This document shows, one piece after another, positions 3,843 to 28,956 of a stretch of DNA of 63,667 nt. Under the pieces are notes generated by a model. The model searched no databases. It was not told where the DNA came from and saw nothing but the letters and a program-made list of their open reading frames with translations. Position numbers and translations under genes: made by a program. Each line of letters begins with the position of its first letter. Position 1 is the first letter of the stretch. The stretch covers positions 1 to 63,667 of the forward strand of contig JAJZPO010000005.1 in NCBI GenBank assembly GCA_021811155.1. Direction: 5' to 3'. The DNA comes from Bacillota bacterium (GTDB taxonomy: Bacteria > Bacillota > Desulfitobacteriia > Desulfitobacteriales > JAJXUE01).

Positions 3843-3870
3843 CTCGACCGCCTCCTTCATTTTTACGGCT

Positions 3871-3981
3871 GTTGAAAAACTTCGTCTAGCTTTGTCGCCG
3901 ATGCTGCTGCCATCCTCACCGTACGCCCAGTACGCTTCCGGTGTCAGCCGCATCGGCTTCGCGCTATACTCGTTTTTGAAC
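3871..3981 (-). repeat. rod-shaped hairpin element, copy B (stem extends to 3867-3985)
   Basis: Reverse complement reads GTTCAAAAACGAGTATAGCGCGAAG...GGCGACAAAGCTAGACGAAGTTTTTCAAC. It shares both ends with the copy at 20842-20952. The interior differs in sequence but keeps its pairing. Confidence 0.8.
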
Positions 3982-3996
3982 AGCCTAATAGGGTCA

Positions 3997-4884
3997 TCAG
4001 AGAACCATTGTGCCGATGCCCTCGTCTGTGAATATTTCAAGCAGGATGGAATGGGGCACCCGCCCGTCGATGATGTGAACCTGGCGCACCCCTGAGCTTA
4101 TGGCATGGACACAGCATTCGACCTTGGGAATCATGCCCCCGCTGATAACGCCTGAGGAAATCAGTCCGTCAACCTCACTCGTCCTTACTGTAGAGATCAG
4201 GCTGTCCTTGTCCTCGTAATCGGCATAAATCCCTTCCACATCTGTGAGCAGAACCAGCTTGTCGGCCCGCAGGGCTCCGGCAATGGCGCCAGCTGCATAG
4301 TCGGCGTTGATGTTGTAGCTCTCTCCGTCTTCCCCTGCTCCCACCGGTGCAATAACCGGAATATAGCTCTTTGTGACCAAAGTCTCGATAATCTCCGGGT
4401 TCACTCCGGTTACTTCCCCAACAAAGCCCAGGTCGATTTCTTCTTCATGACCTTGGTCATCGGTGACTGCCATTTGTTTTTTTGCAGCCGTGAGCAGCCC
4501 GCCGTCCTTGCCGGAAATTCCCACAGCCTTGGCCCCTAAACCTGAGAGCATGGTTACGATTTCCTTATTCAATTTTCCCGCCAGGACCATTTCTGTTATC
4601 TCCATGGTTTCGGCATCGGTCACCCGCAGTCCCTGGACAAATTCAGACCTCTTGCCCACCTTCTTCAGCATGACGCTGATTTCCGGCCCGCCCCCGTGCA
4701 CCACCACCGGGTTGATCCCCACGAATTTCATCAGGGTAATATCGGTCAGCACCGCCCGCTTCAGGCTATCGTCCAGCATAGCATTGCCGCCGTACTTGAT
4801 TACCACGGTTTTGCCCGAAAATTTCTTGATATAGGGTAAAGCCTCCACCAAAATCTCCGCTTTTTCCAAAGCTGATATGCCCAC
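3997..4884 (-). CDS. argB: acetylglutamate kinase
   Basis: Amino-acid kinase family ([20 protein letters not shown]). Start set at GTG 4884, with GAGGAGG 8 nt upstream, giving the usual ~295 aa. The longest ORF starts at 4977. Confidence 0.85.
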
Positions 4885-4996
4885 ACCAATTTCCTCCTCA
4901 CTACACCGGTTAATAAAGTGGGCGCCGGTTCGCACCCCGTTCAAACAACGGCCAACGCTCCAAAGTGAGTCAGTCAAGGACCGTCCCCCGATTGAC

Positions 4997-6205
4997 TCAG
5001 GTGCGGTAACTGCCGTTGATGGTCACATATTCATGACTGAGGTCGCACCCCCAGGCAGTAGCCCGGAAATCCCCCAGGTTTAATTCTACCCGCACCTTGA
5101 TATCTTTTTGGCTGAGGATTTCCTTCGCCTCTTCCTCCGAGAAAGGCAAGCCGCCCCCAGCTTCGCATACCTGCAGTTCACCCAGGAAAATATCAACCAG
5201 GCCTGGGTCGAACCCTTCTATTGAGTAACCCAAGGCGCAGATTATCCTGCCCCAGTTGGCGTCCTCGCCGTAAAACGCGGCCTTAGTCAGACTGGAGCCG
5301 GCAATCCCCCTGGCAGCCCGCCTGGCGTCTTCCAGGCTGCCCGCTCCGCCGACCTCAATCTCCAGAAACTTGGTGGCCCCTTCCCCGTCCCGGGCAATCA
5401 TCTGTGCCAGTTCCCGGCAGACCCGGCTCAAGGCAGCTTTGAACTTCCCATAGTCATCACTTCCGGCCTGCAGGGGGCTGTTGCCGGCCATGCCGTTGGC
5501 CAGGATCAGCAGTGTGTCATTGGTACTGGTATCCCCATCCACCGTGATCATATTGAAAGACTCGTCCGCGGCTTCCCGCAGGGCTTCCTGCAAAAGCCGG
5601 GCATCAATCCTGGCGTCAGTGGTGATGAAACACAGCATGGTGGCCATGTTGGGGTGAATCATCCCCGAACCTTTGGCAACACCGCCGATTCTCACCTTCT
5701 GCCCGGACAGGGAAATCTCCGCCGCTGTTTCCTTGGCAAAAGTATCCGTGGTCATCATGGCCAGGGCCAGTTCATGGCCGCCTTGGGAGGACAGCGCCTT
5801 CCCGGCTTTTTGCACACCGGGGAGGACTTTGTCCATCGGCATCTCCACCCCGATGACCCCGGTGGAAGCTACAGCCACCCGGTCCTCACCTGTCCCCAGT
5901 ACTGCGGCCGCCTCCCGGGCCATGGCCAGGCAGTCGGAGATACCCCGCTCCCCCGTACAGGCATTGGCATTGCCGCTGTTAATAACTATCCCTTTAGCCA
6001 GGCCGCCTTCAACCACTTTTTTGCTGTGTATCACAGGTGCGGCTTTGACCCGGTTTGTGGTAAACACCCCGGCCGCCACCGCCTCCACCTCTGAGACGAT
6101 CAGTCCCACATCATACTTGTCAGCTTTCTTTATCTCCGCCATGGCCGCTCCGGCCAAAAACCCCCTGGGAGCGCACACTCCGCCCGCAATCTGCAGCAAC
6201 TCCAA
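4997..6205 (-). CDS. argJ: bifunctional glutamate N-acetyltransferase / amino-acid acetyltransferase
   Basis: 402-aa ArgJ family protein with the self-cleavage region [14 protein letters not shown] and a GATKF motif. Confidence 0.95.
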
Positions 6206-6224
6206 ACCCTCCTATTACTTCAAG

Positions 6225-7256
6225 TTAGGGCATCAGCGGCACCATTTCCAGGCCCATGCCCTCAGGCAGGCCCCAGAGCAGGTTCATATTCTGCACAGCC
6301 TGCCCCGCCGCACCCTTCACCAGATTGTCAATCACCGAGAGCACCACCAGCCTGCCGGTCCGCCCGTCAACCACCAGGCTAACCATACAGTGGTTGGAGC
6401 CGTAGACCCATTTGGTCTGGGGCAGCACCCCGGCCGGAAGCATGGTCACAAACTGCTCTCCGGCATAAAATTCCGTATAGGCCTGCCTGACCTGGGCCTC
6501 AGTCCAGCCCGGTTTCAGCCTGCCGTAAATAGTTGCCAGAATGCCTCTGGACATCGGCACCAGGTGAGGGGTAAAGCTTACCGTAATCTTTTCCCCCGCC
6601 AGACCGGAAAACTCCTGTTCTATTTCCGGGGTATGCCGGTGTTTGCCCACATTATAAGCTTTAAAGTTTTCATTGACCTCCGAAAAGTGGGACCCCAGGC
6701 TCAACCCCCGGCCCGCCCCGGTGACACCTGATTTGGCGTCGATAATGATGCTTTCCGTCTCAATCATCCCCGTCTTTAGAGCCGGGGCCAGTCCCAGGAT
6801 GCTCGCCGTGGGATAACAGCCGGGATTGGCAACAAGCTTCGCACCTTTTATCAACTCCCGCTTCAGTTCCGGCAGACCGTAAACTGCCTGCTCCAGGTTG
6901 GCCGGGGCAGGGTGCTGATACCACTCCTCATAGACAGCCGGGTCTGCCAGGCGGTAATCAGCGCCCAGGTCTATTACCCGTTTGCCCATTGCCGTTAGTT
7001 TCCCCGCCAAAGCGCCTGCTAACCCATGCGGCAAGGCCAGGATAACCTGGTCAACCCCGGCAAAGTTCTCCGGATTGTCATCCACCAGTTCCAAATCCCC
7101 TACCGGCAGGCTGTGGGGGTAAACCTCACGATATTTTTTCCCCACGTAGCTGTGGGAGCTAAGCAGCCCAATTTCCGTTTCCGGGTGACCCGAGAGCAAT
7201 CGCACCAGTTCAGCCCCGGTGTACCCAGTTGCTCCGATTATGCCTACTTTAATCAT
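6225..7256 (-). CDS. argC: N-acetyl-gamma-glutamyl-phosphate reductase
   Basis: 343 aa. N-terminal Rossmann motif GATGYTG, active-site region NPGCYPT, first gene of the arg operon. Confidence 0.95.
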   Translation of the reverse strand: MIKVGIIGATGYTGAELVRLLSGHPETEIGLLSSHSYVGKKYREVYPHSLPVGDLELVDDNPENFAGVDQVILALPHGLAGALAGKLTAMGKRVIDLGADYRLADPAVYEEWYQHPAPANLEQAVYGLPELKRELIKGAKLVANPGCYPTASILGLAPALKTGMIETESIIIDAKSGVTGAGRGLSLGSHFSEVNENFKAYNVGKHRHTPEIEQEFSGLAGEKITVSFTPHLVPMSRGILATIYGRLKPGWTEAQVRQAYTEFYAGEQFVTMLPAGVLPQTKWVYGSNHCMVSLVVDGRTGRLVVLSVIDNLVKGAAGQAVQNMNLLWGLPEGMGLEMVPLMP

Positions 7257-7270
7257 CCTCGCCCCTCCTG

Positions 7271-7318
7271 ATGAATCATTATTTAATAATTATACAAATC
7301 AATGTATAAAAATGCAAT
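7271..7318. promoter_or_regulatory. two ARG-box-like operators (ArgR/AhrC type)
   Basis: ATGAATCATTATTTAATA (7271-7288) and AATGTATAAAAATGCAAT (7301-7318) each resemble TGAAT-wwww-ATTCA. One covers the -35 hexamer and the other the start region of the argC promoter. Confidence 0.5.
7289..7317 (-). promoter_or_regulatory. sigma-A type promoter of the arg operon
   Basis: The minus strand reads TTGCAT-17 nt-TATAAT, about 30 nt upstream of the argC ATG. Confidence 0.55.
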
Positions 7319-7380
7319 AATAATTGTTGAGCATCCTATCTATTTTTGTGTCCTCCACCGATGGAAAAATGTATTCCATA

Positions 7381-7409
7381 TTGATACATTCCCTGGCAGA
7401 AGATATAAT
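7381..7409 (+). promoter_or_regulatory. sigma-A type promoter of serC
   Basis: TTGATA-17 nt-TATAAT, about 48 nt upstream of the serC ATG. Confidence 0.55.
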
Positions 7410-7456
7410 GTCTAATAAGGTTGTTAAAAATTGAACAAATATCGGGAGGAGTTTTC

Positions 7457-8545
7457 ATGCCAGAAAGAGTCCTTAACTTTAATCCAGGCCCTGCAGCTCT
7501 TCCGCTGCCCGTTTTAGAAGAGGCGCAAAGCGAATTGCTTAATTTTGAAGGTACCGGTATGTCCGTGCTGGAAATCAGTCACCGTTCCAAGGAATATGAA
7601 GCCATCAATTCGGAAGCTGAGGCCCTGCTCAAGGAACTGCTCGGCGTTCCTGACAATTACCGGGTACTTTTCCTGCAAGGGGGCGCCAGCACCCAGTTTG
7701 CAGCCGTCCCGCTGAATTTGACGCCGCACGGCGCCACCGCCGACTACATCTTAACCGGCAGCTGGGCTGAAAAGGCCTACCAGGAAGCAAGCAAGTTTGT
7801 CAGCACCCACGTGGCTGCCAGCACCAAAGAAGGGAACTATCAGCGCATCCCGGTGCCTGACGAAATCAAACTCAGCGACTCTCCCGCCTATGTTCACCTT
7901 TGTTCCAATAACACAATTTTCGGCACCCAGTGGCAGTCTTTCCCCGATTTCGGCACTGTGCCGGTAATTGCCGACATGTCGAGCGACATTCTTTCCCGCC
8001 GCATTGACGCTGCGAAATTTGCCCTGATCTACGCCGGAGCACAAAAGAACCTGGGGCCTGCCGGTGTGACCGTGGTGATTATCCGCAATGACCTGTTGGA
8101 GAAAGTTCCCGCCGGCATCCCAACCATGCTGCGCTACGATATTCACGCCAAGAATGACTCCCTCTACAATACCCCGCCTGCCTTTGCCGTATACATGGTG
8201 AACCTGGTTCTCCGCTGGCTCAAAAACAGCGGCGGCCTGGAAGTAATGGAGAAACGCAACGCTGAAAAAGCCGGCATAATTTATGCGGCTATTGATAACA
8301 GCGGCGGCTTTTACCGCGGCCATGCAGACAAGGACAGCCGCTCCCTGATGAATATCACTTTCCGGCTCCCCAGCGAAGAACTGGAGAAAGAGTTTGCCGC
8401 TGCGGCAAGCAAAGAAGGGCTCGTCGGTTTGAAAGGCCACCGCTCTGTCGGAGGTATCCGGGCCTCGGTTTACAATGCCATGAGCCTGGAGGGATGTCAG
8501 GCTCTTGCCCAGTTCATGGCCGTTTTCCAGAGCAAAAACGGCTGA
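7457..8545 (+). CDS. serC: phosphoserine aminotransferase
   Basis: MPERVLNFNPGPAALP is the typical SerC N-terminus. ATG 7457 is preceded by GGGAGGAG. The longest ORF starts at 7421. Confidence 0.92.
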   Translation: MPERVLNFNPGPAALPLPVLEEAQSELLNFEGTGMSVLEISHRSKEYEAINSEAEALLKELLGVPDNYRVLFLQGGASTQFAAVPLNLTPHGATADYILTGSWAEKAYQEASKFVSTHVAASTKEGNYQRIPVPDEIKLSDSPAYVHLCSNNTIFGTQWQSFPDFGTVPVIADMSSDILSRRIDAAKFALIYAGAQKNLGPAGVTVVIIRNDLLEKVPAGIPTMLRYDIHAKNDSLYNTPPAFAVYMVNLVLRWLKNSGGLEVMEKRNAEKAGIIYAAIDNSGGFYRGHADKDSRSLMNITFRLPSEELEKEFAAAASKEGLVGLKGHRSVGGIRASVYNAMSLEGCQALAQFMAVFQSKNG

Positions 8546-8575
8546 TTCCAGCCCTAAAAACTCACAGAAACACGC

Positions 8576-8618
8576 AAGGAGGCCGCCCTGTACCGGGGCG
8601 TGCCTCCTTACGTCATTT
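8576..8618 (+). terminator. intrinsic terminator after serC
   Basis: GC-rich stem AAGGAGGCCGCCC...GGGGCGTGCCTCCTT, followed by a short T-run. Confidence 0.55.
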
Positions 8619-8723
8619 TCACACGACGTTGCCTCAAAAATTCAGAATATCTAAAGGTATTTTGTTCAATTACAGCGAATTTTTTACCACTGTCTTATAA
8701 CACCTTTAAAGGACTGATAAACT

Positions 8724-10118
8724 TTGACCCAGCTGCTGGATGAACTGTGCCATATTGTGGGCCGGGAGCATGTGTACTCTGCCTACAGCGACCGTTACTG
8801 TTACACCTACGACGCCTCTTTCTGCACCGTGGAAAGCGGTAATCTGCCCGCCTTTATCGTGCACCCCGGTTCTGCGGAGGAAGTCTCCCATCTCATGCGG
8901 CTGGCCAACAGGGAGAAGATTCCGGTCATTCCCCGCGGGGCAGGCAGCAATGTCAGCGGCGGCACGATTCCCGTCAAGGACTGCATGGTCATGGTTTTGA
9001 CCAGACTGAACCGCATTCTGGAAATCGATACCCGCAACCTCGTGGCAGTGGTAGAACCCGGTGTAGTCACCGGAGTGTTTCAGCAGGAGGTGGAAAAGCT
9101 GGGGCTTTTTTATCCGCCTGACCCGGCAAGCCTGCCCTTTTCAACCCTGGGGGGAAATGCCGCCGAGTGTGCCGGCGGTCCCAGGGGGGTAAAATACGGT
9201 GTAACCCGGGATTACGTCCTTGGGCTGCAGGTCGTGCTTCCCGACGGGCAGGTTATCGAAACCGGGGGCCGCACCTTGAAAAATGTCGCGGGCTATGACC
9301 TTACCCGCCTGTTCGTGGGCTCCGAAGGCACTCTAGGGATCATCACCCGCATTACCCTGCGCCTCATCCCCCTGCCGGAAGCCAAGCAGACTATGCTGGC
9401 GGTTTATGACAGCGTGGAGGGAGCCGCTGAAACCGTTGCCGCAGTCATCTCCGCCGGGATTATTCCCGCCACCCTGGAGTTTCTTGACCAGGTCTACATC
9501 AAGAATATTGAGGAATATGCTCACGTAGGCTTTCCGCTGGACGCGGCGGCCGTACTCCTGATTGAAGTGGACGGGGATGCCGCGGTCATCGAAAAACAGA
9601 TTGCCAAAATAGAGGAGACTTGCCGCCGGCAAGGGGCCACGCAGATTAGAATCGCCAGAACCGCCCGGGAAGCGGGCGACCTGTGGCAGGCCCGGCGCGC
9701 TGCCTTCGGTGCCCTGGCCCGGCTAAAGCCTACCATTATCGGGGAAGACGCCACCGTTCCCCGCAGCAGCTTGCCGGAAATGGTCAAAAGAATCCGACGC
9801 ATTGCAGAGGAATTTGACGTTCTGATAGCGGTTGTGGGCCATGCCGGAGACGGCAACCTGCACGCCACTTTTCTGTGTGATGAACGGGATAAAGAGGAAA
9901 TGGCCCGGGTGGACCAGGCTATCGCCGCGGTAATCGATGCAGCTCTGGCCCTCCAGGGCACGGTTTCCGGCGAGCACGGGATAGGCAGGATGAAATCCGG
10001 GTTCCTCGCCCGTCAAGTTGGTCCTGCGGCTTTGGGGCTGATGCGCAGCATCAAGCGCACCCTGGACCCCAATAATATTCTCAATCCCGCTGTGATGTTC
10101 GGGGAGGGACAAGAGTGA
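8724..10118 (+). CDS. FAD-binding oxidase, GlcD / D-lactate dehydrogenase family
   Basis: 464 aa with an FAD_binding_4-type N-domain (IPVIPRGAGSNVSGG) and an FAD-oxidase C-domain (GTVSGEHGIG). TTG start. Substrate not determinable by eye. Confidence 0.85.
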   Translation: MTQLLDELCHIVGREHVYSAYSDRYCYTYDASFCTVESGNLPAFIVHPGSAEEVSHLMRLANREKIPVIPRGAGSNVSGGTIPVKDCMVMVLTRLNRILEIDTRNLVAVVEPGVVTGVFQQEVEKLGLFYPPDPASLPFSTLGGNAAECAGGPRGVKYGVTRDYVLGLQVVLPDGQVIETGGRTLKNVAGYDLTRLFVGSEGTLGIITRITLRLIPLPEAKQTMLAVYDSVEGAAETVAAVISAGIIPATLEFLDQVYIKNIEEYAHVGFPLDAAAVLLIEVDGDAAVIEKQIAKIEETCRRQGATQIRIARTAREAGDLWQARRAAFGALARLKPTIIGEDATVPRSSLPEMVKRIRRIAEEFDVLIAVVGHAGDGNLHATFLCDERDKEEMARVDQAIAAVIDAALALQGTVSGEHGIGRMKSGFLARQVGPAALGLMRSIKRTLDPNNILNPAVMFGEGQE

Positions 10119-11410
10119 ACTCAGATCTGTCCCACCTGGAAAATGAAATTGTCAAGTGTATCCGCTGCGGCGCTTGCCAAAGCGCCTGTCCGGTTTTCCG
10201 CGAAACCGGCAATGAATCAAGTGTCGCCAGGGGCAAGGTAAGGCTGCTCCGCTCCGCCCTCCAGGGTGAAACTCCGCTCAATCCCGAATTATCTGAGCGC
10301 ATGTCTTTATGCCTGATGTGCAAAGCTTGCACCCCGGTCTGCCCCAGCGGTGTAAAAACCGACCGGTTGGTGGCTGGAGCGAGGTCAGCGGCGGTAGCGC
10401 ATCTGGGCCTTTCCTGGCGGAAGCGTCTTGTCTTCCGCCTCGGCCTGAAACACCGCGGGATTTTCCGGTGGGGACTTAAAATGGGCTCTTTGGGACGAAC
10501 ACTCCTTTTCCGCCCCCATCCTTCCGGCCACGGCGTGTTGCCCCGCCTGCCTTTGGGCATCGGCCGCCGCCGCCTGCTGCAGCCTTTAGCCCCCCACAGC
10601 TTTGCAGATGTCTGGCGGAAGAGCAAGGGGTTCAAAACGGTACCTGCACCCAAAACTGCTGATGCCCGGGTGGCCCTGTTCACCGGCTGTATGGTAAATT
10701 ACATGTATGTAGACACAGGCAAGGCAGTGGTGAGAGTTCTGCGGCGCAACGGGGTAGAGGTCATATACCCGGAGGACCAGCACTGCTGCGGCACCCCTGT
10801 ACGGGTGAACGGAGACCTGGAAACCGCAGTGATGATGGCCAAGCACAACCTGGATGTCCTGTACCGCCTGGACGCTGACTTTATCGTCACACCCTGCGCC
10901 TCTTGCGGCCTGGCCCTGAAGCAGGACTATCCGGAACTCCTTAAAAATACCCCGGAATATGCCGCGAAGGCAGAGGCTGTCTCCGGCAAAACCCGGGATT
11001 TTGCCGAATACATCATAACCCTGCCCCATTGGCAGCAGGGCCTCAATCCGCTGGCAGGTGTAATCACCTACCATGACCCCTGCCATCTGGCCCGCGGCCA
11101 GGGCATCCGCCAGGAACCCCGCTCCCTGCTGCAGGGCATACCTGGAGTGTCATTGGTGGAACTCTCGCCAATAGAACAGTGCTGCGGCAGCGCCGGCAGC
11201 TTCAGCCTGAGCCATCCCGATTTGTCCAGGCGGATCGGTGACCGCCGGATTGACAGCGTCGAGCAGTCAGGCGCCGCCGCGGTTGTTTCGGGCTGTTCAG
11301 CCTGCCTGATGCAGCTCCGGGACGGCATTACCCGCCGCAGTTTGAAGGTGGAGACCCTTCATATTGCAGAACTTCTCGACCGCTCCTACGGAACCGCCGC
11401 TGAACAGTGA
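10115..11410 (+). CDS. Fe-S oxidoreductase subunit, GlcF-like (2x[4Fe-4S] + two CCG domains)
   Basis: CIRCGACQSACP and CLMCKACTPVCP ferredoxin motifs plus CCG-type cysteine clusters (CCGTP, PCASCG, CCGSAG). GTGA overlap with the preceding gene. Confidence 0.85.
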   Translation: MNSDLSHLENEIVKCIRCGACQSACPVFRETGNESSVARGKVRLLRSALQGETPLNPELSERMSLCLMCKACTPVCPSGVKTDRLVAGARSAAVAHLGLSWRKRLVFRLGLKHRGIFRWGLKMGSLGRTLLFRPHPSGHGVLPRLPLGIGRRRLLQPLAPHSFADVWRKSKGFKTVPAPKTADARVALFTGCMVNYMYVDTGKAVVRVLRRNGVEVIYPEDQHCCGTPVRVNGDLETAVMMAKHNLDVLYRLDADFIVTPCASCGLALKQDYPELLKNTPEYAAKAEAVSGKTRDFAEYIITLPHWQQGLNPLAGVITYHDPCHLARGQGIRQEPRSLLQGIPGVSLVELSPIEQCCGSAGSFSLSHPDLSRRIGDRRIDSVEQSGAAAVVSGCSACLMQLRDGITRRSLKVETLHIAELLDRSYGTAAEQ

Positions 11411-11419
11411 TCATGCCAA

Positions 11420-12751: not shown

Positions 12752-12756
12752 CCGGA

Positions 12757-13668: not shown

Positions 13669-13811
13669 TTTTACTCCAAGCCTCTTTCTTCATCCTCATC
13701 TGAGACTCCCACTTCTATAAGTGGGAGTGGTTACGGTAAATCATGACTTTGAAACTTGCGTCTCCCTGGAACCTGGCTGTCATTATGAAGCTGCCGCACA
13801 CGAAAAAGATG

Positions 13812-13850
13812 TTGAAGAAACGACACCCCTTCCGGACACCGGAAGGGGTG
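13812..13850 (-). terminator. intrinsic terminator after the M20 gene
   Basis: Perfect 12-bp stem CACCCCTTCCGG-aca-CCGGAAGGGGTG, followed on the minus strand by TCGTTTCTTC. Confidence 0.6.
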
Positions 13851-13855
13851 CTGAT

Positions 13856-15022: not shown

Positions 15023-15032
15023 TTGTTTTCAC

Positions 15033-15623
15033 CTATTTCTTATATCCTATCAGCCTCTGCACATCATCAACAATTTCCCGGGCCATAAGCCAACCGAAAA
15101 AGCCGACCGCAGCGAGGGCAGCCCACCCACTGGAATTACCGGCAACGGAATTCACCGCCATGCTCAGGGCTTTGCCTCTGTCATCCAGACCGGCCAGCCA
15201 ATCTGCCAGGCTGGAGAATCCGCCTGGATTCAGGAGTACAATCCGGGTCCAGAGCCAAGCCGGTGCATTGCCAAGAGCGTTCTCCAATCCCTGCCAGAAC
15301 AGGGCTGCGAGAAGCGCCAATCCTGTCAGTCCCAGAACTGACACTCCCCAGCCCAGATAACGTGCCATTCGATGCCGGCGCTCGATTTCCAGTTCTTCCG
15401 GCGTCCGTTCCAATTCCAATGCTCTCATGACCCCTGCCAGGAAACCGGGGTCAGGCTCAGGGCCATCCGCGGGAGTGAGCAGGCCAAACAATCTCTTTAA
15501 TTGCCTGAATTCCTGCCGGCAGGAAGAACAGCCAAGCAGATGTTCCTCAACCAGGGTCTTCTCGGCCGCATCAGCCTTACCGTCTAGATACAGCCCCAAC
15601 AGGGGTTTTGGACATTTCGCCAC
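15033..15623 (-). CDS. anti-sigma factor (zf-HC2 type, membrane anchored)
   Basis: N-terminal LDGKADAAEKTLVEEHLLGCSSC (H-x3-C-x2-C) with hydrophobic C-terminal helices. GTG start with GGAGGAAG RBS. Overlaps the sigma gene by 47 nt. Confidence 0.75.
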   Translation of the reverse strand: MAKCPKPLLGLYLDGKADAAEKTLVEEHLLGCSSCRQEFRQLKRLFGLLTPADGPEPDPGFLAGVMRALELERTPEELEIERRHRMARYLGWGVSVLGLTGLALLAALFWQGLENALGNAPAWLWTRIVLLNPGGFSSLADWLAGLDDRGKALSMAVNSVAGNSSGWAALAAVGFFGWLMAREIVDDVQRLIGYKK

Positions 15624-16185
15624 GTTCTTCCTCCCCTTCCAGTGAGATTATCTGCTTGCGCAGGGCTTCCCTGGCCCTAAACAGATGGGTCTTAACTGAA
15701 CTGACCGGTATGCCCAAAGTCTGGGCGATTTCTTCGTAAGAAAGCTCCTGCATATGACGCAGCAGCAAGACACTTTTGAATTTGGCTGGCAGGGCATCAA
15801 TTGCTGTTTGTACCTGCTGGCTGGTTTCCTGTTTCTCCAGCTCCTTGAGCGGGTCCATGCCGCCCGCCACCTGCCGTTCGCCGCCATCCGGCAATGGTTC
15901 GTCCAGGGAAACGTTGTTACGTCCTTTACGGCGCAGGGCGTCGATACACAGGTTGTTGGCGATGGAATAAAGCCAGGGGGAAAACCTGCTGTTCTCCTTG
16001 AATCTGGCCAAGGCCCGATAAGCTTTCAAAAAGGCCTCCTGCGCGATATCCCGGGCATCCTCGCGGTTGCCCACCATCCTGTAGGCCATGGCAAAAATCG
16101 GTTTTTGGTAGCGGCGCACAAGTTCGGCAAAGGCTTCCTTGTCCCCGCGTGCAGCCTTGAAGGCTAATTCTTCATCGCTGAACAT
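15577..16185 (-). CDS. ECF-type RNA polymerase sigma factor (sigma-70 group 4)
   Basis: Region 2 (DIAQEAFLKAYRAL) and region 4 (LSYEEIAQTLGIPVSSVKTHLFRAR) are recognisable. Confidence 0.9.
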   Translation of the reverse strand: MFSDEELAFKAARGDKEAFAELVRRYQKPIFAMAYRMVGNREDARDIAQEAFLKAYRALARFKENSRFSPWLYSIANNLCIDALRRKGRNNVSLDEPLPDGGERQVAGGMDPLKELEKQETSQQVQTAIDALPAKFKSVLLLRHMQELSYEEIAQTLGIPVSSVKTHLFRAREALRKQIISLEGEEERGEMSKTPVGAVSRR

Positions 16186-16235
16186 CTGTCCTCCCTGTTA
16201 CAGGGAATATTTCATGCAACCTCTCTGTCAGTAAT

Positions 16236-16260
16236 TACGCCCGAGCCTCTAAAATGTTTC
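16236..16260 (-). promoter_or_regulatory. ECF (SigW-like) autoregulatory promoter
   Basis: The minus strand reads GAAAC-16 nt-CGTA, matching the TGAAAC-N16-CGTA consensus of SigW-type ECF promoters. It lies about 50 nt upstream of the sigma gene. Confidence 0.55.
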
Positions 16261-16272
16261 GGTAAAAATTTA

Positions 16273-17133
16273 TCAGACATTGCCCGGATGCACGTATTTC
16301 AGATATTGCCTGGCCTCACGCAAAGCCCGGTTCATGCTTTGCCTCGGTGTAGGAGGTAAGTCCATTTTATAGTTTGGAAAATACCGGGTCAAGTGCAAAG
16401 GTATATCAGGCTTGATTTCCGCCAAAAATTTGGCCAGGGCCCCGATCTCCTTCGCCGTATCATTTTTGCCGGGAATCAACAGGGTGGTGACCTCCAGGTG
16501 ACAGTATCCCGCCATGAGCCGGGCATTATCCAGGACATGGGACAGGAAACCGCCGCACATCTGACGGTAAAAATCGTCCGTATAGGACTTAATGTCAAGA
16601 TTGATAGCATCGATGTAGGGCAGAAGCTCTTGCAGCGGCTCTTTTTCCAGATAGCCGTTAGTTACCAGCACATTGCTGAGCCCGTTTTGTTTTACTCTCC
16701 GGGCGCTGTCCAGGACATACTCATACCAAATGACCGGTTCGGAGTAGGTATAGGCTACCCCAATGCAATCAGGGTGGGAACTTGCATACCGCAGCGCCAA
16801 TTCAGCCAATTCCTCCGGGCTGACTTCCCGGGTATCTGGCTTCTGCTGCGAAATTGACCAGTTTTGGCAGTAGCTGCAGCGAAAGTTGCAGCCGAAGGAG
16901 CCCACGGACAGAACAGAACTGCCCGGCTGAAAGTGCCGAAGGGATTTCTTTTCGATAGGGTCCAGGGCTATGCTCGAAACCTGGCCATAGTTAAGGCTGT
17001 AAAGCTTCCCCTGCAGGTTCTGCCGGGCCTGGCAGATGCCAAGCTGACCTTCCCCCAGCCGGCAGCGGTGGGGGCAGAGGCAGCACACCACCCTTCCCTC
17101 GCCCTTCTGCTCAAAATACATAGCTTCATGCAC
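16273..17133 (-). CDS. AmmeMemoRadiSam-system radical SAM enzyme
   Basis: CNFRCSYCQNW radical-SAM cluster, N-terminal CxxCPHxC motif (CCLCPHRC), PflA-activase-like fold. Start uncertain: GTG 17133 (GGGGAGG RBS), ATG 17121 or ATG 17199. Confidence 0.8.
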   Translation of the reverse strand: MHEAMYFEQKGEGRVVCCLCPHRCRLGEGQLGICQARQNLQGKLYSLNYGQVSSIALDPIEKKSLRHFQPGSSVLSVGSFGCNFRCSYCQNWSISQQKPDTREVSPEELAELALRYASSHPDCIGVAYTYSEPVIWYEYVLDSARRVKQNGLSNVLVTNGYLEKEPLQELLPYIDAINLDIKSYTDDFYRQMCGGFLSHVLDNARLMAGYCHLEVTTLLIPGKNDTAKEIGALAKFLAEIKPDIPLHLTRYFPNYKMDLPPTPRQSMNRALREARQYLKYVHPGNV

Positions 17134-17323
17134 CCAGAGGACCTCCCCAGCCACAAAAAATGCTTGAATAAATAGGGTCCCCACAAAATCGTTGCTCATT
17201 AGTCCACCCCAGGATTTCTTACGGAAAACGCTGCTTAGGAGACATTACTGCTTCAGGGAGGGTGAACATTTCTGGAGCAAATTTTCACCTGGTTCATGGA
17301 AGTCAGAGCCGCCGTGCTGACCG

Positions 17324-18766
17324 TCAGCCAAGGAATACACATGTAGGCGGCGGAGTTGAATAGTATCTCTTCACTTCAAACCTGCTCAACTCCACAGGCT
17401 CATCTGGCCCAATGCCGGCTTTCTGCCTCACAATCCGCAGCTGCTCTTCAACGCTGTCAACACCCTCGAGGTTCGGCAGCAGAAGACCCGAACGGCGTCC
17501 ACGCCGGACAATCACTCCATAGAGCTTAGGGTCTAGATCCGCCTCGCTGTCAATCGGTTCTTCCTCGCCGAGGATATCGACTGAACAGGTCAACTCAGGC
17601 AGCTCCTCCAGTTCTATAGGGAAAAAACGGGGATCCTCTGTCCCGGCGCTTACGGCATTGTGGATCACTTCCCGGGCCAGATCGGGCTGGGTTGCGGCTA
17701 TGGTACCGATGCAGCCCCGCAGCTCACCATGCTTTTTCAGAGACACAAACACCCCGGCCCGTTGCGGCAGGTCCCCCGTGAGGGGTGGATACTCATCCAG
17801 GTACTCTCCCGTGCGCAGGTAATGTTCCAGGCTGGCCATAGCCAAGGCTGTTACAGGATGCTGGCCCAGCCTTGCCCCTGCTGCCCGCTTGCGGCGCAGG
17901 TTCCGGAAATCCTCAACCAGTTTGCCCTGGACTCCGCTTTTCCCCTTGGGCGCAAGGCCGGCAACCAGATAGCCAACTCCGAAGGGGCCTTCATAGCTGT
18001 ACACCCGGCTCTCAACATCATAGCCGTCAATTGCCCCAAGCAAAATATTCAGAGGGCGGTAGCCGCATTCCCCCGCCGCTTCGAGCAGGGAAGGTTCCAA
18101 ATCCAGAATGCGGATGAAATCCCTTTCCTTCAGGGCCTGGTAAACAGCCTGGTCGAATTCCCGGCCGCGCAGGTTGTACCCGGCGGGCGCCTCGGGTGTC
18201 AGGCGGTGGGAGAGATCCCCGCTGGCCACAACCGCCACCCTGCCCGGGCCGGCTTCCACCGCCTGCTGTATGGCCATGCCAAAGTCATACAGCTCAGAGG
18301 GTTGGAACCAGGCCATGCCCATGACCACCACTTTTCCCTTAAAACCGGCCCGGCTGAAGTATTCCAGCGGTACCATGACGCCGTGATCCAGCTCCAGTTT
18401 GACTCTGTAGCGGCGTGCCTCAGCCCTGTCCGCAACAGCGGCAAAAATTCCCTTTTTCCCGGCCGCACCGGCAATTCTCCCAGCCAGGTCTGTGTCGTTA
18501 GCATACTCCAGCTGGAGTTGCGGCGCCCCGAATGCTTTAAAATCCCCTTTTAGTTTTTCCTCGCCGAGGATAACAATACCATCCTGAAAAACCGGACCGT
18601 GAGGGGATATGAAAACGATGGTGTCCGGAGCCTCAGCCACCAAATCCCGGGCCAGTTCCTCCAAACCGGCAATGGTTTTTGCCGCCTTGATTCTCTCCCT
18701 GCCGCCAACCTCTTCAATAATTATCGGAGGATGGGGCGCCAAAGCCCCCAGAACAAAATTTCCCAT
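17324..18766 (-). CDS. fusion protein: LigB/Memo-like class-III extradiol dioxygenase domain + AMMECR1 domain
   Basis: N-half: ALAPHPPIII, SPHGP, LDHGVMVP, SGDLSHRL. C-half: GVFVSLKKHGELRGCIGT (AMMECR1). Start at ATG 18766 with AAGGGGGG RBS. The longest ORF starts at 18853. Confidence 0.8.
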   Translation of the reverse strand: MGNFVLGALAPHPPIIIEEVGGRERIKAAKTIAGLEELARDLVAEAPDTIVFISPHGPVFQDGIVILGEEKLKGDFKAFGAPQLQLEYANDTDLAGRIAGAAGKKGIFAAVADRAEARRYRVKLELDHGVMVPLEYFSRAGFKGKVVVMGMAWFQPSELYDFGMAIQQAVEAGPGRVAVVASGDLSHRLTPEAPAGYNLRGREFDQAVYQALKERDFIRILDLEPSLLEAAGECGYRPLNILLGAIDGYDVESRVYSYEGPFGVGYLVAGLAPKGKSGVQGKLVEDFRNLRRKRAAGARLGQHPVTALAMASLEHYLRTGEYLDEYPPLTGDLPQRAGVFVSLKKHGELRGCIGTIAATQPDLAREVIHNAVSAGTEDPRFFPIELEELPELTCSVDILGEEEPIDSEADLDPKLYGVIVRRGRRSGLLLPNLEGVDSVEEQLRIVRQKAGIGPDEPVELSRFEVKRYYSTPPPTCVFLG

Positions 18767-18779
18767 CAGGCACCCCCCC

Positions 18780-19688
18780 TTAGAAAATCCGTTTGCCGAA
18801 GGCAGAGGTGATGAGCCCCACAGCCAATTCGGCAGTTTTGTTGCGGGTATCAAGGATTGGGTTTACTTCGGCCACCTCCAGCGAGGACATGATTCCAGCC
18901 TCAGCCACCAGCTCCATTGCCAGGTGCGCCTCACGGTAATTAATACCTCCCGGCACCGGAGTCCCCACCCCCGGGGCCTCAGACGGGTCAATTACATCCA
19001 TGTCAAAACTCACATGCACTCCGTCTGTACCGTCCGCGGCGATGTCAATGGACCGCCGCATCACTTCTTTCATCCCCAGCTGGTCAATATCGCTCATGGT
19101 AAACACGGTTATCCGGGTCTTTAACAGGGCTTCCCGTTCCTGAGGGTCAAGATTGCGGATGCCGATCAGCACGGTATTTTCCTGGCTGGCCTTGGGACCT
19201 GCGCCGCCGGTCGCGACCAGGCGAGCATCCCCAATGCCCATCCCAACTGAGAGCGGCATGCCGTGGATGTTGCCGCTGCTGGTAGTTTCGGGTGAGTTAA
19301 AATCCCCGTGCGTATCAAACCATAATATCCCCAGCTTTTTCTTTACCCTGCCCATGCCTGCCAGGCTGCCTATCCCGATGCTGTGGTCTCCGCCCAGAAT
19401 CAGAGGGACAAACCCCTCCCCTGCCGCTTCTGCCACCATGTCGCATAACTCCTGGCTGACTTTGAGGATTTCCGGCAGGTACTTCAGCTTGCCGTCCTTG
19501 ATTTCCCTGGTCTCAGGCTGGGGAACATGGATGTTGCCCATATCCTCCACTACCAGCCCCATTCGCAGCAGCTTGGCATTCAGACCCGCATAGCGCATGG
19601 CGCTCGGGCCCATATCCACCCCCCTGCGGTCTGCTCCCAGGTCGATTGGTACGCCAATAATCCTTACTTTCTTGCGCATATCATCCAT
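18780..19688 (-). CDS. rocF: arginase (ureohydrolase family)
   Basis: GGDHSIGIGS, WFDTHGDFNSPETTSSGNIHGMPLS and SFDMDVIDP Mn-binding motifs. Start at ATG 19688, with GGAG 8 nt upstream. Arginase rather than agmatinase is judged from motif flavour and operon context. Confidence 0.8.
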   Translation of the reverse strand: MDDMRKKVRIIGVPIDLGADRRGVDMGPSAMRYAGLNAKLLRMGLVVEDMGNIHVPQPETREIKDGKLKYLPEILKVSQELCDMVAEAAGEGFVPLILGGDHSIGIGSLAGMGRVKKKLGILWFDTHGDFNSPETTSSGNIHGMPLSVGMGIGDARLVATGGAGPKASQENTVLIGIRNLDPQEREALLKTRITVFTMSDIDQLGMKEVMRRSIDIAADGTDGVHVSFDMDVIDPSEAPGVGTPVPGGINYREAHLAMELVAEAGIMSSLEVAEVNPILDTRNKTAELAVGLITSAFGKRIF

Positions 19689-19714
19689 TGTTATCACTTG
19701 TTATCACTCCGGAC

Positions 19715-20785
19715 TCAAAATTCCCTTACCCGTTTGCGCACAAAGGGCGAAGTCATCGCCCCCAGCAGCCCCCCGTAGTTCAGGCCGAATTTCACTGTAT
19801 CCCCGACTTTTATACCCGGTTTTTTGCCCGCATCCAGGATCAAATGATCGCTGCTTGCCCCGATTACCTGAACCCTCTCATCGAGGGGATAGATGCCGTC
19901 CGACGGCACGTCCTGCCGTCCTAAAGCCACTATAGCCCTAATCATTGGGCCCTTGTCTGCGAAATAGGGCACTCGGCCAAATGCATCCTGGCCAACTGTT
20001 CCCCTGGGCAGGGAAGGTTTGACGTGCACTTCAACCACCTCGGCCCTGATAAAAAAGGCATCCTGGTAGGTATCGGGCAAAGGATTGCGGGCAACCGTTT
20101 CCCGCCCGAGCAAAATGCCTTCCCCGATGCGCAGGTGGCTGATGCCCGCTGGAATCTGCCGGTCGAACAAGAGCCCAAGACTGCTGCTGTTTCCCCCTGA
20201 TACCACTTCTAAGTTTGTGCCGGTTTCCCGTTCCACATTCTTCGTCAGTTCCACCAACTGACTAAGGTTTTCCACTGATGGCGCCACTCCGCCGTAGCAT
20301 GCCAGGTTCACCCCCAGACCTCTCAGTCTGAGTCCCCTGTTCTTGCTTACCTGCCGTGCCAGGGGAAGCGCTTCCTTAGGCAGGACGCCTTCCCGCAGGT
20401 CCCCCAGGTCCACCATAATAATTACTCCGTGCAGCTTTCCCTGGTGTTTGGCCTCTTCGCCCAGGGCTGACATAACTTCATATTCCGAGTTGAGACTGGT
20501 TTCAGCCAGTGCGACCGTGTCTTTCACCTGGGACAGTCCCGGAATTCGCAAGAGCATGAGCGGGACCCCCAGGCCTAACCTCCGCAGGTGCTCCAGGTTT
20601 TCCAGCCTTGAATCGGCCAGTTCCGCGACTCCCCCGGCCACCATAGCCCGGGCCACCGCCTCATGCGCCAGGCAGGCCTTGGTCACCCCCGCGACTTTGA
20701 TATTGTGGGCTGCTGCCTTCTCACACACGACCCGGGCATTGTGAGTAAGCTTGGCCAGATCGATGACAATTTCCGGGTAACCCAA
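19715..20785 (-). CDS. orr: ornithine racemase (alanine-racemase-fold PLP enzyme)
   Basis: Alanine-racemase N-domain (KVAGVTKA PLP-lysine region), ~356 aa like Orr, located in the ornithine operon. Start at TTG 20785 with GAGGAAGGGA RBS. The longest ORF starts at 20833. Confidence 0.7.
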   Translation of the reverse strand: MGYPEIVIDLAKLTHNARVVCEKAAAHNIKVAGVTKACLAHEAVARAMVAGGVAELADSRLENLEHLRRLGLGVPLMLLRIPGLSQVKDTVALAETSLNSEYEVMSALGEEAKHQGKLHGVIIMVDLGDLREGVLPKEALPLARQVSKNRGLRLRGLGVNLACYGGVAPSVENLSQLVELTKNVERETGTNLEVVSGGNSSSLGLLFDRQIPAGISHLRIGEGILLGRETVARNPLPDTYQDAFFIRAEVVEVHVKPSLPRGTVGQDAFGRVPYFADKGPMIRAIVALGRQDVPSDGIYPLDERVQVIGASSDHLILDAGKKPGIKVGDTVKFGLNYGGLLGAMTSPFVRKRVREF

Positions 20786-20841
20786 GGTGATCCCTTCCTC
20801 TCTGTCCAAAGAGCATCCCAAAATGACCCTCAACTGAGACC

Positions 20842-20952
20842 GTTCAAAAACAAGTATAGCGCGAAGTCATGCCTGCCGGCACCGGAGGCGTGCTAAACGC
20901 ACGTTGAGGATGCCGGTAGGTATGGCGACAAAGCTAGACGCAGTTTTTCAAC
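20842..20952 (+). repeat. rod-shaped hairpin element, copy A (stem extends to 20835-20959)
   Basis: GTTCAAAAACAAGTATAGCGCGAAG...GGCGACAAAGCTAGACGCAGTTTTTCAAC fills the whole gap between the reactivase gene and orr. A 14-bp inner stem and an apical CGTGC/GCACG hairpin are visible. Confidence 0.8.
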
Positions 20953-20956
20953 GGTC

Positions 20957-22318
20957 TCACCTCTCGATCCCCATGCTCTCCCGCATCAGGTAAGTCGCCC
21001 CGGTCCTGTGGCGGCGGGCCAGAACACCAAGGGAAGCAAAAATATAGTAGTTATCCAGCAAAACCGCCGCAGTCCGGCGGGGCAGCAGTTCCTTCGCCTG
21101 GTCTGAGGTAACAGACTGCAGAATTTCCGCTCCTCCGGGCAGACGGGTCAGCGCTCCGCCTGTGCCGATAACAAACTTGACTTTGGTCAGGTCTTTCCCT
21201 TCGGCCAGGGTGATCCTGCCGCCGGGCCCGTAGGTAGTTATGAGCCGGCCGGCGTGGCGTTTTACAGCCACCTCCACAGCCTTGGCTGTAAGTTCACGGC
21301 TCATGGCAATTTCCTCATCTGACTCCGGCACAGGCTTGATTAGCCCGGTAAAGCCGCCTCCGTAGCGGGAGGCCAGGCTCTCTTTCCCTATTAGTTCTGT
21401 CAAGTGGGGAGCATTTACATATACCCCCAGGTCCCCTTCCACTGTCCGCTTGGCGACAGGTTCCGGCCCAGTGGAGATTTTACTGATTTCCTCCGCCCCT
21501 TCCGTCACCGAGTGGACATCCGTGGTGGCTCCACCCACGTCCACCACCATCAGATCGCCGATTTCCGCATAAAGCTCCCTGGCTCCCTGCATAACCGCGC
21601 CTGGGGTCGGCATAATCTCACCCAGGACCTTTTCCCTTATTCTGCTCATGCCGGGGGCCTGTGTGATATGCTTTTCAAACACCCGCTGGATTGCTTTTCG
21701 GGTCGGCTCCACATTAAGCTGATCGATGTTTGGATACACATTTTCCACCAGAGATATTTCCATTCCCCTGGCCCGGAAAATCCCTTCGACCTCCTGCGCG
21801 GCTGCAGTATTGCCGGCATAAATCACCGGTGTTTCTGTTTTCCTTTTCTCCAGGGCCTGGCTGAGAACCCGGGCATTGTGGAGCACAACCTCCTTATCCC
21901 CGTAGTCGACCCCGCCCGAGAGCAGAATGATATTAGGCCCAACTGCGAAGATTTGGCCCAGATCCGCCTCTCCCAGCTTGCCCGCCGTTGCCAGACGGAG
22001 TACTGCCCCCGCCCCCAGTGCCGCTTCCCTGGCCGCCTTGACCGTCATATCGTAAACGAGGCCGTGGACCGTCATCTTCAAGCCGCCTGCAGCCGAGCTG
22101 GTGGCATAAAACCCGTCATAATTCAGTTCTTCCCCCAGCCGGTCCCGCAGTTGCTCTAAGGCCTGGTTCAGCCCCAGCAGCACATCTCCGCGGGATACAC
22201 TGGTGGGGGCAAAGCCCTGGCCGACAAAGCAGGGGTTTTCCCCGTCCAAGCCGGTAAAGGCGTTAACCACGGTTGTTGTGCTGCCAATCTCCGCCACGAG
22301 GGTAGTAGCCATGCCCAT
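20957..22318 (-). CDS. GlmL/MutL-like aminomutase reactivase (acetate/sugar-kinase fold ATPase)
   Basis: MATTLVAEIGSTTTVVNAF is typical of the methylaspartate-mutase accessory protein family. ATGA start/stop overlap with oraE at 22318. Confidence 0.7.
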   Translation of the reverse strand: MGMATTLVAEIGSTTTVVNAFTGLDGENPCFVGQGFAPTSVSRGDVLLGLNQALEQLRDRLGEELNYDGFYATSSAAGGLKMTVHGLVYDMTVKAAREAALGAGAVLRLATAGKLGEADLGQIFAVGPNIILLSGGVDYGDKEVVLHNARVLSQALEKRKTETPVIYAGNTAAAQEVEGIFRARGMEISLVENVYPNIDQLNVEPTRKAIQRVFEKHITQAPGMSRIREKVLGEIMPTPGAVMQGARELYAEIGDLMVVDVGGATTDVHSVTEGAEEISKISTGPEPVAKRTVEGDLGVYVNAPHLTELIGKESLASRYGGGFTGLIKPVPESDEEIAMSRELTAKAVEVAVKRHAGRLITTYGPGGRITLAEGKDLTKVKFVIGTGGALTRLPGGAEILQSVTSDQAKELLPRRTAAVLLDNYYIFASLGVLARRHRTGATYLMRESMGIER

Positions 22319-28912: not shown

Positions 28913-28956
28913 ATAAAAAAGGACGCCGCTTCACAATCAAGTAAAGCGGCGTCCTT
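28913..28956 (-). terminator. intrinsic terminator after rpsI
   Basis: 13-bp stem AAGGACGCCGCTT/AAGCGGCGTCCTT, followed on the minus strand by TTTTTTATT. Confidence 0.8.

Follow-up and report, generated by a model that had tools for sequence, protein, structure and literature searches.

The window analysed here, a stretch of 63,667 nucleotides from a Bacillota bacterium, carries two copies of a rod-shaped hairpin element, each in a gap between genes. Pfam matches place copy B between argB (stop codon at 3997-3999) and argD (start at 3842), in the sense orientation, and copy A between a MutL-type reactivase-like gene and a gene of the alanine-racemase fold, in the antisense orientation. A sequence-only reading of the window had put the two copies in these settings, at 20842-20952 (top strand +) and 3871-3981 (top strand -), and its coordinates and strands are right; its claim that the stem base of copy A overlaps the reactivase stop codon is also borne out. 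In the window, their shared ends of 25 nt and 29 nt have exactly two occurrences apiece, whereas shuffled sequence predicts none. An 18-bit match at 28917-28959, considered as a possible third copy, is an ordinary terminator hairpin. As that reading had stated, no U-tract follows either copy, and no terminator-like site was found at A or B, implying that they are not intrinsic terminators.

Table 1. Parts of the two window copies, and direct repeats flanking four copies at other loci.
Feature	Position	Strand	Sequence or extent	Basis or match
Copy A, rod-shaped hairpin	20835..20959	+		fold; covariance model R1, 140.5 bits
Copy A, stems P1 and P2	within 20835..20959	+	P1 TGAGACCGTTCAAAAAC / GTTTTTCAACGGTCTCA; P2 TAGC/GCTA	
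Copy A, lower internal loop, then P3	within 20835..20959	+	GCGAAG / GCGACAAA	
Copy A, upper internal loop, P4 and apical loop	within 20835..20959	+	CCGGAGG / TTGAGGA; P4 CGTGC/GCACG; apical loop 5 nt	
Copy A, 5' leader	20808..20834	+	AAAGAGCATCCCAAAATGACCCTCAAC	alignment AGAGCA....AAAA..ACCCT with AGAGCACTGAAAAACTACCCT
TGA stop of MutL-type reactivase-like gene (20957-22414), within outer P1 of copy A	20957..20959	-	TGA	Pfam context
Copy B, same rod architecture as copy A	3867..3986	-	P1 AGGCTGTTCAAAAAC / GTTTTTCAACAGCC; P4 CGTAC/GTACG	fold; model R1, 130.1 bits
Copy B, short leader remnant directly 3' of argB stop	3987..3996	-	TGACCCTATT	
Direct repeat, locus L004			CCGAATAG	8/8
Direct repeat, locus L006			CCGGGAAG	8/8
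Direct repeat, locus L012			GYGGTACC	7/8
Direct repeat, locus L026			STAGAAGT	7/8

Folding recovered the stems proposed earlier, including the two G-T pairs of copy A and the compensated change that distinguishes the two P4 stems. The predicted folds are stable on both strands, at -72 kcal/mol (z = -10) for the top strand of copy A and -58.6 for its bottom strand, and at -57.4 kcal/mol (z = -6.2) and -56.3, respectively, for copy B. The extensions tgagacc/ggtctca and ggct/agcc, previously taken for differing flanks that happen to lengthen each stem, were reproduced in the folds, but they are the outer part of P1 rather than unrelated flank: across the wider family P1 is a conserved, covarying stem (GGAGGCC/GGCCTCC, GCAGGCT/AGCCTGC). 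Both copies also have a conserved 5' leader of 10-27 nt containing ACCC, which had been overlooked. The leader of copy A shares homology with the left end of Desulfocucumis copies, which in turn resembles the right terminus.

The folded shape of the element is maintained by selection, as its first description had argued from the two copies. In an alignment of the first 30 copies, 96.2% of the cells are paired and 28 of 44 pairs show double changes, values that none of 500 shuffles reached. Paired positions contain 76 G-U against 22 A-C combinations, implying that one strand is favoured, and two G-U pairs at the base of P4 are conserved. The conserved core consists of a stem and the internal loops AGCGCGAAR / YGACAAAGCTA and CCGNAGG / TYGAGGA, lying below the CGTAC/GTACG tip. 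The loop motifs AGCGCGAAR, CCGNAGGCGTAC, GTACGTYGAGGA and YGACAAAGCTA persist from Carboxydocellales to Anaerovibrio on stems that all covary. Across orders, these unpaired interior motifs have changed less than the terminal repeats, the opposite of what is seen in an ordinary MITE. Within a single genome the copies are nearly invariant except in a 5-bp stem core, which is as variable as host DNA, even though decay has affected their flanks and any duplications, a pattern that indicates either gene conversion or constraint that continues once a copy has inserted. The variable stem does not appear to be copied from the flanking target, because a copy's own flanks match it no better than those of other copies.

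The element is not confined to the window. Searches by pattern and by covariance model, of the kind the sequence-only reading had proposed, brought to light more than 90 others, in Carboxydocellales, Thermincola, Desulfocucumis and other Bacillota MAGs; exact-pattern scans and model R1 together gave 92 different full copies across the fetched loci. One Carboxydocellales MAG has more than 70, and in several groups of anaerobic Bacillota a genome carries tens to about 100. Read depth is consistent with these counts: in the window's source metagenomes the element is covered 15-50x as deeply as its flanks, and in the Desulfocucumis source run its depth is 1300-2700 against 36-66 (20-75x). Contigs end at the element. 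Members are 135-160 bp long and non-coding, with an apical loop and stems of variable length and no conserved reading frame. Distant relatives in Anaerovibrio are not dispersed; they stand in tandem at a single locus, an orthologous site, where the unit varies from 0 to 3 copies as a tandem repeat; in Anaerovibrio lipolyticus LB2005 the site is pgk|tpiA. The orthologous unit occurs in three Anaerovibrio species, with three compensatory double changes, and is also present in rumen metatranscriptome contigs.

Both window copies sit in arginine or ornithine operons, and a shared cis-regulatory site coupling arginine synthesis to its breakdown had been considered. This idea did not survive a wider survey. 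None of 38 ORFs neighbouring other copies is arginine-related by Pfam (2 of the 38 have no Pfam match), the identified neighbours including purD, lepA, hemN-like, recQ, folD, a Mur ligase and ABC ATPases. Nor did the covariance model find the element in 80 argB loci (488 kb) of other genomes, where the top score was 28.7 bits and true copies exceed 90 bits. The arginine setting of the two copies is a coincidence. The sequence-only reading had itself held that dozens of copies scattered without functional bias would speak against a special role, and with dozens now found between unrelated genes that role has largely failed. The survey thus disposes of an appealing but mistaken regulatory connection between the synthesis of arginine and the breakdown of ornithine. 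A close relative with an empty argB-argD site was also sought: the best ArgB among 185,579 species genomes shares only 65% identity, the X8 metagenome relatives are too distant, and four metagenomes held no empty site for copy B.

The placement of the copies is biased towards gene 3' ends, in either orientation, and avoids divergent promoter regions: co-directional genes flank 45 copies (27 of them antisense and 18 sense), convergent genes 15 and divergent genes only 2. Where a gene converges on the 3' end of the element, its stop codon lies no more than about 8 nt from that end, or within the outer stem, in approximately 70% of cases. The insertions are in or beside hairpins at these gene ends. 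The terminal inverted repeats are imperfect and coincide with P1 (GGCYGTTSAAAAAC...), with arms of 17-20 bp; in Desulfocucumis the left end GAG--CACTGAAAAACT agrees with the complement of the right end, GAGGCCGCTGAAAAACT, at 14 of 15 aligned positions, with a 2-nt gap. At four loci (L004, L006, L012 and L026) 8-bp duplications flank the element at identical boundaries, and in the first three the duplicated sequence is the loop or centre of a terminator-like hairpin; at L018 a hairpin of 22 nt is duplicated. Such duplications were detected in only about 5 of 91 copies, the overall count being 21 of 91 against 17.7 in controls, and window copies A and B have none. Nested, tandem, truncated and 'mini' copies are present as products of decay.

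Imperfect terminal inverted repeats, 8-bp direct repeats and terminator-hairpin sites in the youngest copies are the marks of a MITE. We therefore consider that the family is probably a non-autonomous, MITE-like transposable element, one of the dispersed palindromic repeats of anaerobic Bacillota; of the three options that had been raised for the window copies, a REP/MITE-like element fits best. As expected of MITEs, its members are non-coding, shorter than about 300 bp, bounded by terminal inverted repeats and dispersed in many copies per genome. No autonomous IS sharing the element's termini was seen in the fetched loci: approximately 690 kb around copies contained neither a transposase nor an autonomous element, and the termini nowhere formed a long inverted pair. 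The ORF families that recur near copies encode ABC ATPases, methyltransferases, glycosyltransferases and similar proteins. We suggest that copies would be moved in trans by a putative transposase making 8-bp staggered cuts, and that only lineages keeping the fold and the unpaired loop motifs would persist, which in turn suggests that a protein or a transposition intermediate may read the loops on the single-stranded top strand. An element inserted in an operon, as at argB-argD or between the reactivase and racemase genes, would be transcribed with its neighbours and, in the mRNA, would be no more than a stable hairpin with a passive role.

The conservation of the interior could instead mean that a dedicated protein, either an HUH/Y1 enzyme (a RAYT or an IS200/IS605-type transposase) or another hairpin-binding factor, recognises the single-stranded DNA form of the hairpin and reads the asymmetric top-strand loops, the copies being kept in place to serve the host or the protein and not simply as junk. 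The excess of G-U pairs, including the two at the P4 base, the loop motifs shared from Carboxydocellales to Anaerovibrio on covarying stems, the near invariance of same-genome copies outside the 5-bp core and the orthologous Anaerovibrio unit with its compensatory changes are all consistent with this, as are the lack of target duplications in most copies and an REP-like preference for gene 3' ends over promoters. Single-strand Y1 transposition, however, makes no direct repeats, and exact 8-bp repeats flank the young copies. Moreover, no bias in the orientation of copies was seen, no RAYT-like gene was present in 8-kb pieces of carrier genomes, and the rod, of about 120 nt, is 3-5 times the length of an REP, a 20-40-bp palindrome, and has no terminal, unpaired GTAG or CGTC tag (PMC3733652). 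We consider this explanation unlikely. Hardly better placed is a broader proposal, which we offer as speculation: that the conserved core is an ancient functional single-strand module whose two asymmetric loops are read on one strand by a putative protein, fixed at a single locus in Negativicutes and multiplied in MITE form in Carboxydocellales and Desulfotomaculia-like lineages. It might be a Bacillota counterpart of the REP-RAYT system or a new protein-binding RNA or DNA motif, and the hypervariable paired 5-bp core might serve as a spacer outside the protein's contacts.

A function at the transcript level is distinctly improbable, whether that of a small RNA, of a self-cleaving ribozyme or of a hairpin with cis-regulatory, processing or stabilising activity; the genomic copies would then be genes for RNAs or elements of mRNAs. 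This reading would explain the strong covariation, the confinement of conserved nucleotides to internal loops and the top-strand preference for G-U; copies A and B lie within operons and must therefore be transcribed, and the Anaerovibrio unit is found in metatranscriptome contigs. Against this, with 18 sense and 27 antisense copies in co-directional contexts, the conserved loops appear in the host transcripts of only about 40% of those copies; neither the fixed orientation nor the recurrent gene association of a cis-acting mRNA element is seen, the adjoining genes being functionally unrelated. Target duplications, nesting and fragments are features of DNA. The Rfam check that had been suggested gave no match at gathering score in the whole window, and over copy A no matching family even at E values up to 10, the single chance match (MEG3, 11 bits) lying almost wholly in the outside flank. 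On visual inspection, the loops do not match the core of a hammerhead ribozyme, a hairpin ribozyme or a k-turn. Promoter and terminator consensus sequences are not conserved, and a search that included inspection by eye found no conserved -35/-10 pair at workable spacing for an outward or internal promoter. It is possible that the hairpin processes or stabilises mRNA as a side effect; such a role cannot account for loops conserved on a specific strand, since the elements point either way relative to transcription. Very remote indeed is the idea of a single-strand DNA initiation signal akin to the ssoA-type origins of rolling-circle plasmids, a hairpin read by RNA polymerase or primase only when single-stranded. 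The long, strand-specific imperfect palindrome of about 130 nt suits such a signal, and its TAGCGC and GAAAAA/GAGAAA motifs loosely recall CS-6 and RSB, quoted in a preprint as TAGCGT and GAGAAAA. The copies are nevertheless chromosomal and number tens to about 100, TAGCG lies in the lower stem or loop rather than the terminal loop, and searches of 72,556 plasmids, 50,697 phage records and viral contigs gave no match, which also discounts a plasmid, phage or viral origin.

We know of no published description of this dispersed hairpin family; its motifs turn up in the literature only as unrelated primers, and we found no literature on repeats of Carboxydocella or Thermincola. We conclude that it is a new family of the MITE/REP/ERIC-like kind. 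To our knowledge REP-like elements have barely been described in Bacillota, and this work adds a structured repeat of high copy number from little-studied anaerobes of the phylum, one that breaks metagenome assemblies at every copy. The approximately 90 aligned copies, with their strong covariation, form a ready set, and strains of the lineages that carry the element could be typed with it as a marker. A dedicated hairpin-binding protein, should one exist, would make the system a new case of partnership between host and repeat.

Several known systems are instructive by comparison. The ERIC or IRU elements of enterobacteria are imperfect palindromes of about 127 bp, intergenic and co-transcribed in either orientation, with no known transposase. 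The present family resembles them in size, in its long imperfect hairpin, in being intergenic and co-transcribed in both orientations, in its tens to hundreds of copies with fold-preserving substitutions, and in having no known transposase; it differs in belonging to another phylum, with no sequence similarity, and in its 8-bp target duplications (in young copies), hypervariable 5-bp stem core and loop motifs conserved across orders. RUP and BOX of Streptococcus pneumoniae, bcr1 of the Bacillus cereus group and Correia/NEMIS of Neisseria make duplications of 2-5 bp (TA or TTTAT) and are tied to known IS families. They share with our family a non-coding length of 100-160 bp, terminal inverted repeats, a stable stem-loop, locations near gene ends and within operons, and nested and truncated copies, whereas ours has an 8-bp duplication, no assigned parent IS and an interior conserved above its termini. 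Integron attC sites have RYYYAAC ... GTTRRRY cores and form same-orientation arrays between cassettes; the ends GTTCAAA / TTTCAAC do not fit these cores, and our copies stand singly between housekeeping genes in both orientations. REPs are 20-40 bp long with a GTAG or CGTC tag, and no REP families are listed for Firmicutes, a term absent from the text of that source (PMC3733652). REP, BIME and REPIN elements with their RAYTs (PMC3733652, PMC2817692) resemble our family in being palindromes outside genes, at gene 3' ends, whose hairpins are maintained by compensatory changes, in having unpaired motifs specific to one strand, and in occurring head-to-head and in tandem. REPs have no target duplication, whereas young copies here have one of 8 bp, and no RAYT is linked to the family.

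The length of the target duplication recalls the IS6/IS26 family, which also duplicates 8 bp; we know of no hairpin targeting by IS6 elements. No IS6-type transposase was seen in the fetched loci, and the resemblance at the terminus is short and restricted to one clade, so that we treat it only as a lead. ISL3 was considered as a parent and set aside, because the inverted repeat in question belongs to IS6. That inverted repeat reads GGTTCTGTTGCAAAG... (PMC2920175), and the terminus core CTGTTGAAAA agrees with CTGTTGCAAA at 9 of 10 positions, a match equalled in only 21 of 2000 shuffles, which may hint at a parent of this kind.

The two hairpins of the window probably belong to a new family of non-autonomous mobile repeats that target hairpins, with fold and loop motifs under selection on one strand. 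Both copies of the sequence-only reading, A and B, were found where it had placed them (see table). Their shared ends, 25 nt at the 5' side and 29 nt at the 3' side, have exactly two occurrences each within the 63.7-kb window and none in shuffles. As claimed, each top strand forms a single extended rod, with folding energies of -72 kcal/mol for copy A (z = -10) and -57.4 kcal/mol for copy B (z = -6.2); in copy A the complementary strand is 13 kcal/mol less stable, because its G-T pairs turn into A-C mismatches. The reactivase stop codon does lie inside the stem base of copy A, and a T-tract is indeed absent after both copies. At copy B the leader directly follows the upstream stop codon (TGA, then TGACCC). 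A possible third window copy, a weak match to the covariance model of the family (R1), is an ordinary terminator hairpin. Downstream of the ornithine-degradation genes, a gene for a LigB-domain and AMMECR1-domain fusion protein adjoins an arginase-family gene; the two ORFs, mechanically listed, share 74 nt, and one start is probably mis-set.

Coordinates and composition of the element, its copies and neighboring features; parts of the element run from outermost (leader) to innermost (apical loop)
Feature	Location	Size or match	Motif or context
Copy A	window 20842-20952, top strand +		ornithine aminomutase, MutL-type reactivase-like gene, copy A (antisense), racemase-fold gene, arginase (Pfam)
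Copy B	window 3871-3981, top strand -		argC-argJ-argB-copy B (sense)-argD-carA (Pfam)
Reactivase stop codon	window 20957-20959
Weak R1 match	window 28917-28959
LigB/AMMECR1 fusion gene	window 17324-18853 (-)
Arginase-family gene	window 18780-19697 (-)
Leader	5'	10-35 nt	contains (G/T)ACCC
P1		~17-20 bp	GGCYGTTSAAAAAC... and its complement
P2			TAGC/GCTA
Lower loop		asymmetric	5' side GCGAAR, 3' side YGACAAA
P3		12-14 bp
Upper loop		7 by 7	CCGNAGG and TYGAGGA
P4			CGTAC/GTACG
Apical loop		4-6 nt
Direct repeat	Desulfocucumis copy	8/8	CCGAATAG
Direct repeat	Desulfocucumis copy	8/8	CCGGGAAG
Direct repeat	Desulfocucumis copy	7/8	GYGGTACC
Direct repeat	metagenome copy L026	7/8	STAGAAGT
lepA stop codon and antisense copy	L009 2615-2620; L109 5150-5160
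Anaerovibrio unit	L131 4787-4912; L159 7156-7495	124 nt
Second small repeat	L009 2330-2480; beside copies in L003, L007, L022		ACCGTCCCC(A)AGTGACTCAC and GTGAGTCA
Palindromic insert	L011 2408-2475; corresponding part of L022	~65 nt	GGGGYCCCCRCAAAATC ... GATTTTGTGGGGTA
Extra module, 3' parts of copies	L023 1500-1570; L129, L110, L119, L137	~62 nt	ATCCTGAAAATTCATACTTAATTTTCATATACTGTTGGTGCCACGTTAGTGGCATGGATGTCT
Diverged terminal repeat, 5' flanks	L023 1290-1360; L138, L160, L153, L137		CAGTTTGTTGAGAAAC
'Mini' elements	window 3892-3962 (joints in run X2)		CCT or CCTT in place of P3 and P4

The family is sizeable. Exact-pattern scans, covering one genome per species, found 12 loci and then 25, and a pattern fixing only part of the 3' half found 87; with R1, the count rose to 92 distinct full copies in fetched DNA, >70 of which come from a single Carboxydocellales MAG. 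Carriers are DBS2-4.bin25 (an unclassified Bacillota bin), Desulfocucumis, Carboxydocellales, Thermincola, a Eubacteriales bin and a Negativicutes bin; three Anaerovibrio genomes contain distant relatives. Read depth tells the same story: copy B stands at 15-50x its flanks in metagenomes holding the window, where contigs end at the element, and in the Desulfocucumis source run the element reaches 1300-2700 vs 36-66 for the flanks (ratio 20-75). Other copies lie beside purD, lepA, hemN-like, recQ, folD, Mur ligase, symporter, ABC ATPase and other genes, none of them for arginine metabolism. Nor did R1 detect the element in 488 kb of DNA comprising 80 argB loci of other genomes, where the best score was 28.7 bits vs >90 bits for true copies; the best ArgB match to the window's lineage, without a close sequenced relative, is 65% identical. 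Together, these three results rule out the proposed link to arginine synthesis and breakdown, whereas the suggestion of a REP/MITE-like element is supported.

Selection on structure, also proposed from the sequence alone, is borne out by a 30-copy alignment: standard pairs make up 96.2% of cells, and double-sided changes occur at 28 of 44 pairs, values that no shuffle or register-slid control came near. With two conserved G-U pairs set aside, the stems of 83 copies contain 76 G-U vs 22 A-C mismatches, a ratio that is indicative only, as some of these alignment cells share ancestry; the excess implies that it is the top-strand fold that is preserved. Across lineages, the interior loops are better conserved than the termini. 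Loop invariance is partly due to the search patterns used, but each half of the element is still conserved where the pattern required only the other half, and Anaerovibrio has the same loop motifs together with a wholly different P1 and P3. Within DBS2-4.bin25, the 5-bp core of P3 varies as much as the host flanks yet is always paired, while all other positions are nearly invariant, with the apical loop only moderately variable. This contrast points to constraint acting after insertion, to gene conversion or to several old master lineages; copying of the core from flanking DNA was ruled out.

The copies sit at gene ends. Among 62 flanked by called genes at each end, 45 have co-directional neighbors (27 antisense, 18 sense), 15 convergent and 2 divergent ones. 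A gene running into the element's 3' end has its stop codon within ~8 nt of that end, or in the outer stem, in ~70% of cases, and the leader of sense copies lies close behind the upstream stop codon. In two different orders an antisense copy lies within 2-5 nt behind the lepA stop codon, through targeting that occurred independently or through an old insertion that both share; given the copy number, chance alone predicts one such coincidence.

Several signs point to mobility. Near-identical Desulfocucumis copies define a unit, (CA)GAGCACTGAAAAACTACCC...GTTTTTCAGCGGCCTC, and three of the four have 8-bp direct repeats at identical boundaries. The octamer duplicated in L004 and L012 forms the loop or center of a hairpin that is preceded by an A-run and followed by a T-run, an intrinsic terminator between convergent genes, and in L018 a complete 22-nt hairpin is duplicated, one on each side. 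The unit's left end resembles the complement of its right end, so the 'leader' amounts to a third terminal repeat, lying outside the other two. Many loci have decayed or rearranged: they include copies nested in copies, full copies with a partial copy behind them, isolated 5' or 3' fragments, 'mini' forms without P3 and P4, and elements into which other small repeats have inserted. Such repeats, duplications and decay products are the usual marks of a MITE inserting into hairpins at gene ends, which explains both the placement and the absence of an orientation rule. In the window's operons, the copies would be passengers that provide the mRNA with a highly stable hairpin, and may affect message stability or processing.

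A plain MITE does not account for everything: the loops being better conserved than the termini and the variable P3 core amid nearly invariant positions both sit badly with it. Across 91 copies duplications were no commoner than in shuffled pairings (21 vs 17.7), neither window copy has a convincing one, and ~690 kb around copies showed neither a transposase nor a long inverted pair of termini. Moreover, the orthologous pgk|tpiA spacer of three Anaerovibrio species contains a unit of the same architecture that runs antisense to the operon; assemblies have 1-3 such units in tandem, and rumen transcriptome contigs add forms with 0 and with 2. Between these species no loop varies and, in P3, three pairs are altered on both sides, implying that pairing is maintained in place. 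By analogy with REP-RAYT, the conserved core could be a functional, protein-binding single-strand module; the loop conservation is consistent with this, but we consider it unlikely. REPs as defined elsewhere, 20-40 bp with GTAG or CGTC tags (PMC3733652, in whose text 'Firmicutes' is absent), exclude the element by size and tags. Rfam yielded no matching family, plasmid, phage and viral collections no match, and a full-text literature search no description. The closest analogues in behavior are ERIC, RUP/BOX and Correia elements. IS6 elements, for their part, produce 8-bp duplications. The terminus core CTGTTGAAAA resembles the IS6-family inverted repeat CTGTTGCAAA (PMC2920175), and 21 of 2000 shuffles did equally well; this is a lead rather than a finding. 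We keep to hairpin-targeting mobile repeats as the preferred reading.

Other small repeats accompany the element. DBS2-4.bin25 has a second one, several units of which stand in tandem between the element and the start of a hemN-like gene. A palindromic insert nested in the 3' P1 strand of two copies resembles a further MITE-like family, for which the element would serve as target. At least five Carboxydocellales copies share an extra module between GCTA and GRCGGGG. A diverged terminal repeat abuts unique G+C-rich hairpins, on both sides and in inverted orientation in L023 and L138. Finally, the source metagenome (run X2) contains 'mini' elements at 3-5x single-copy depth.
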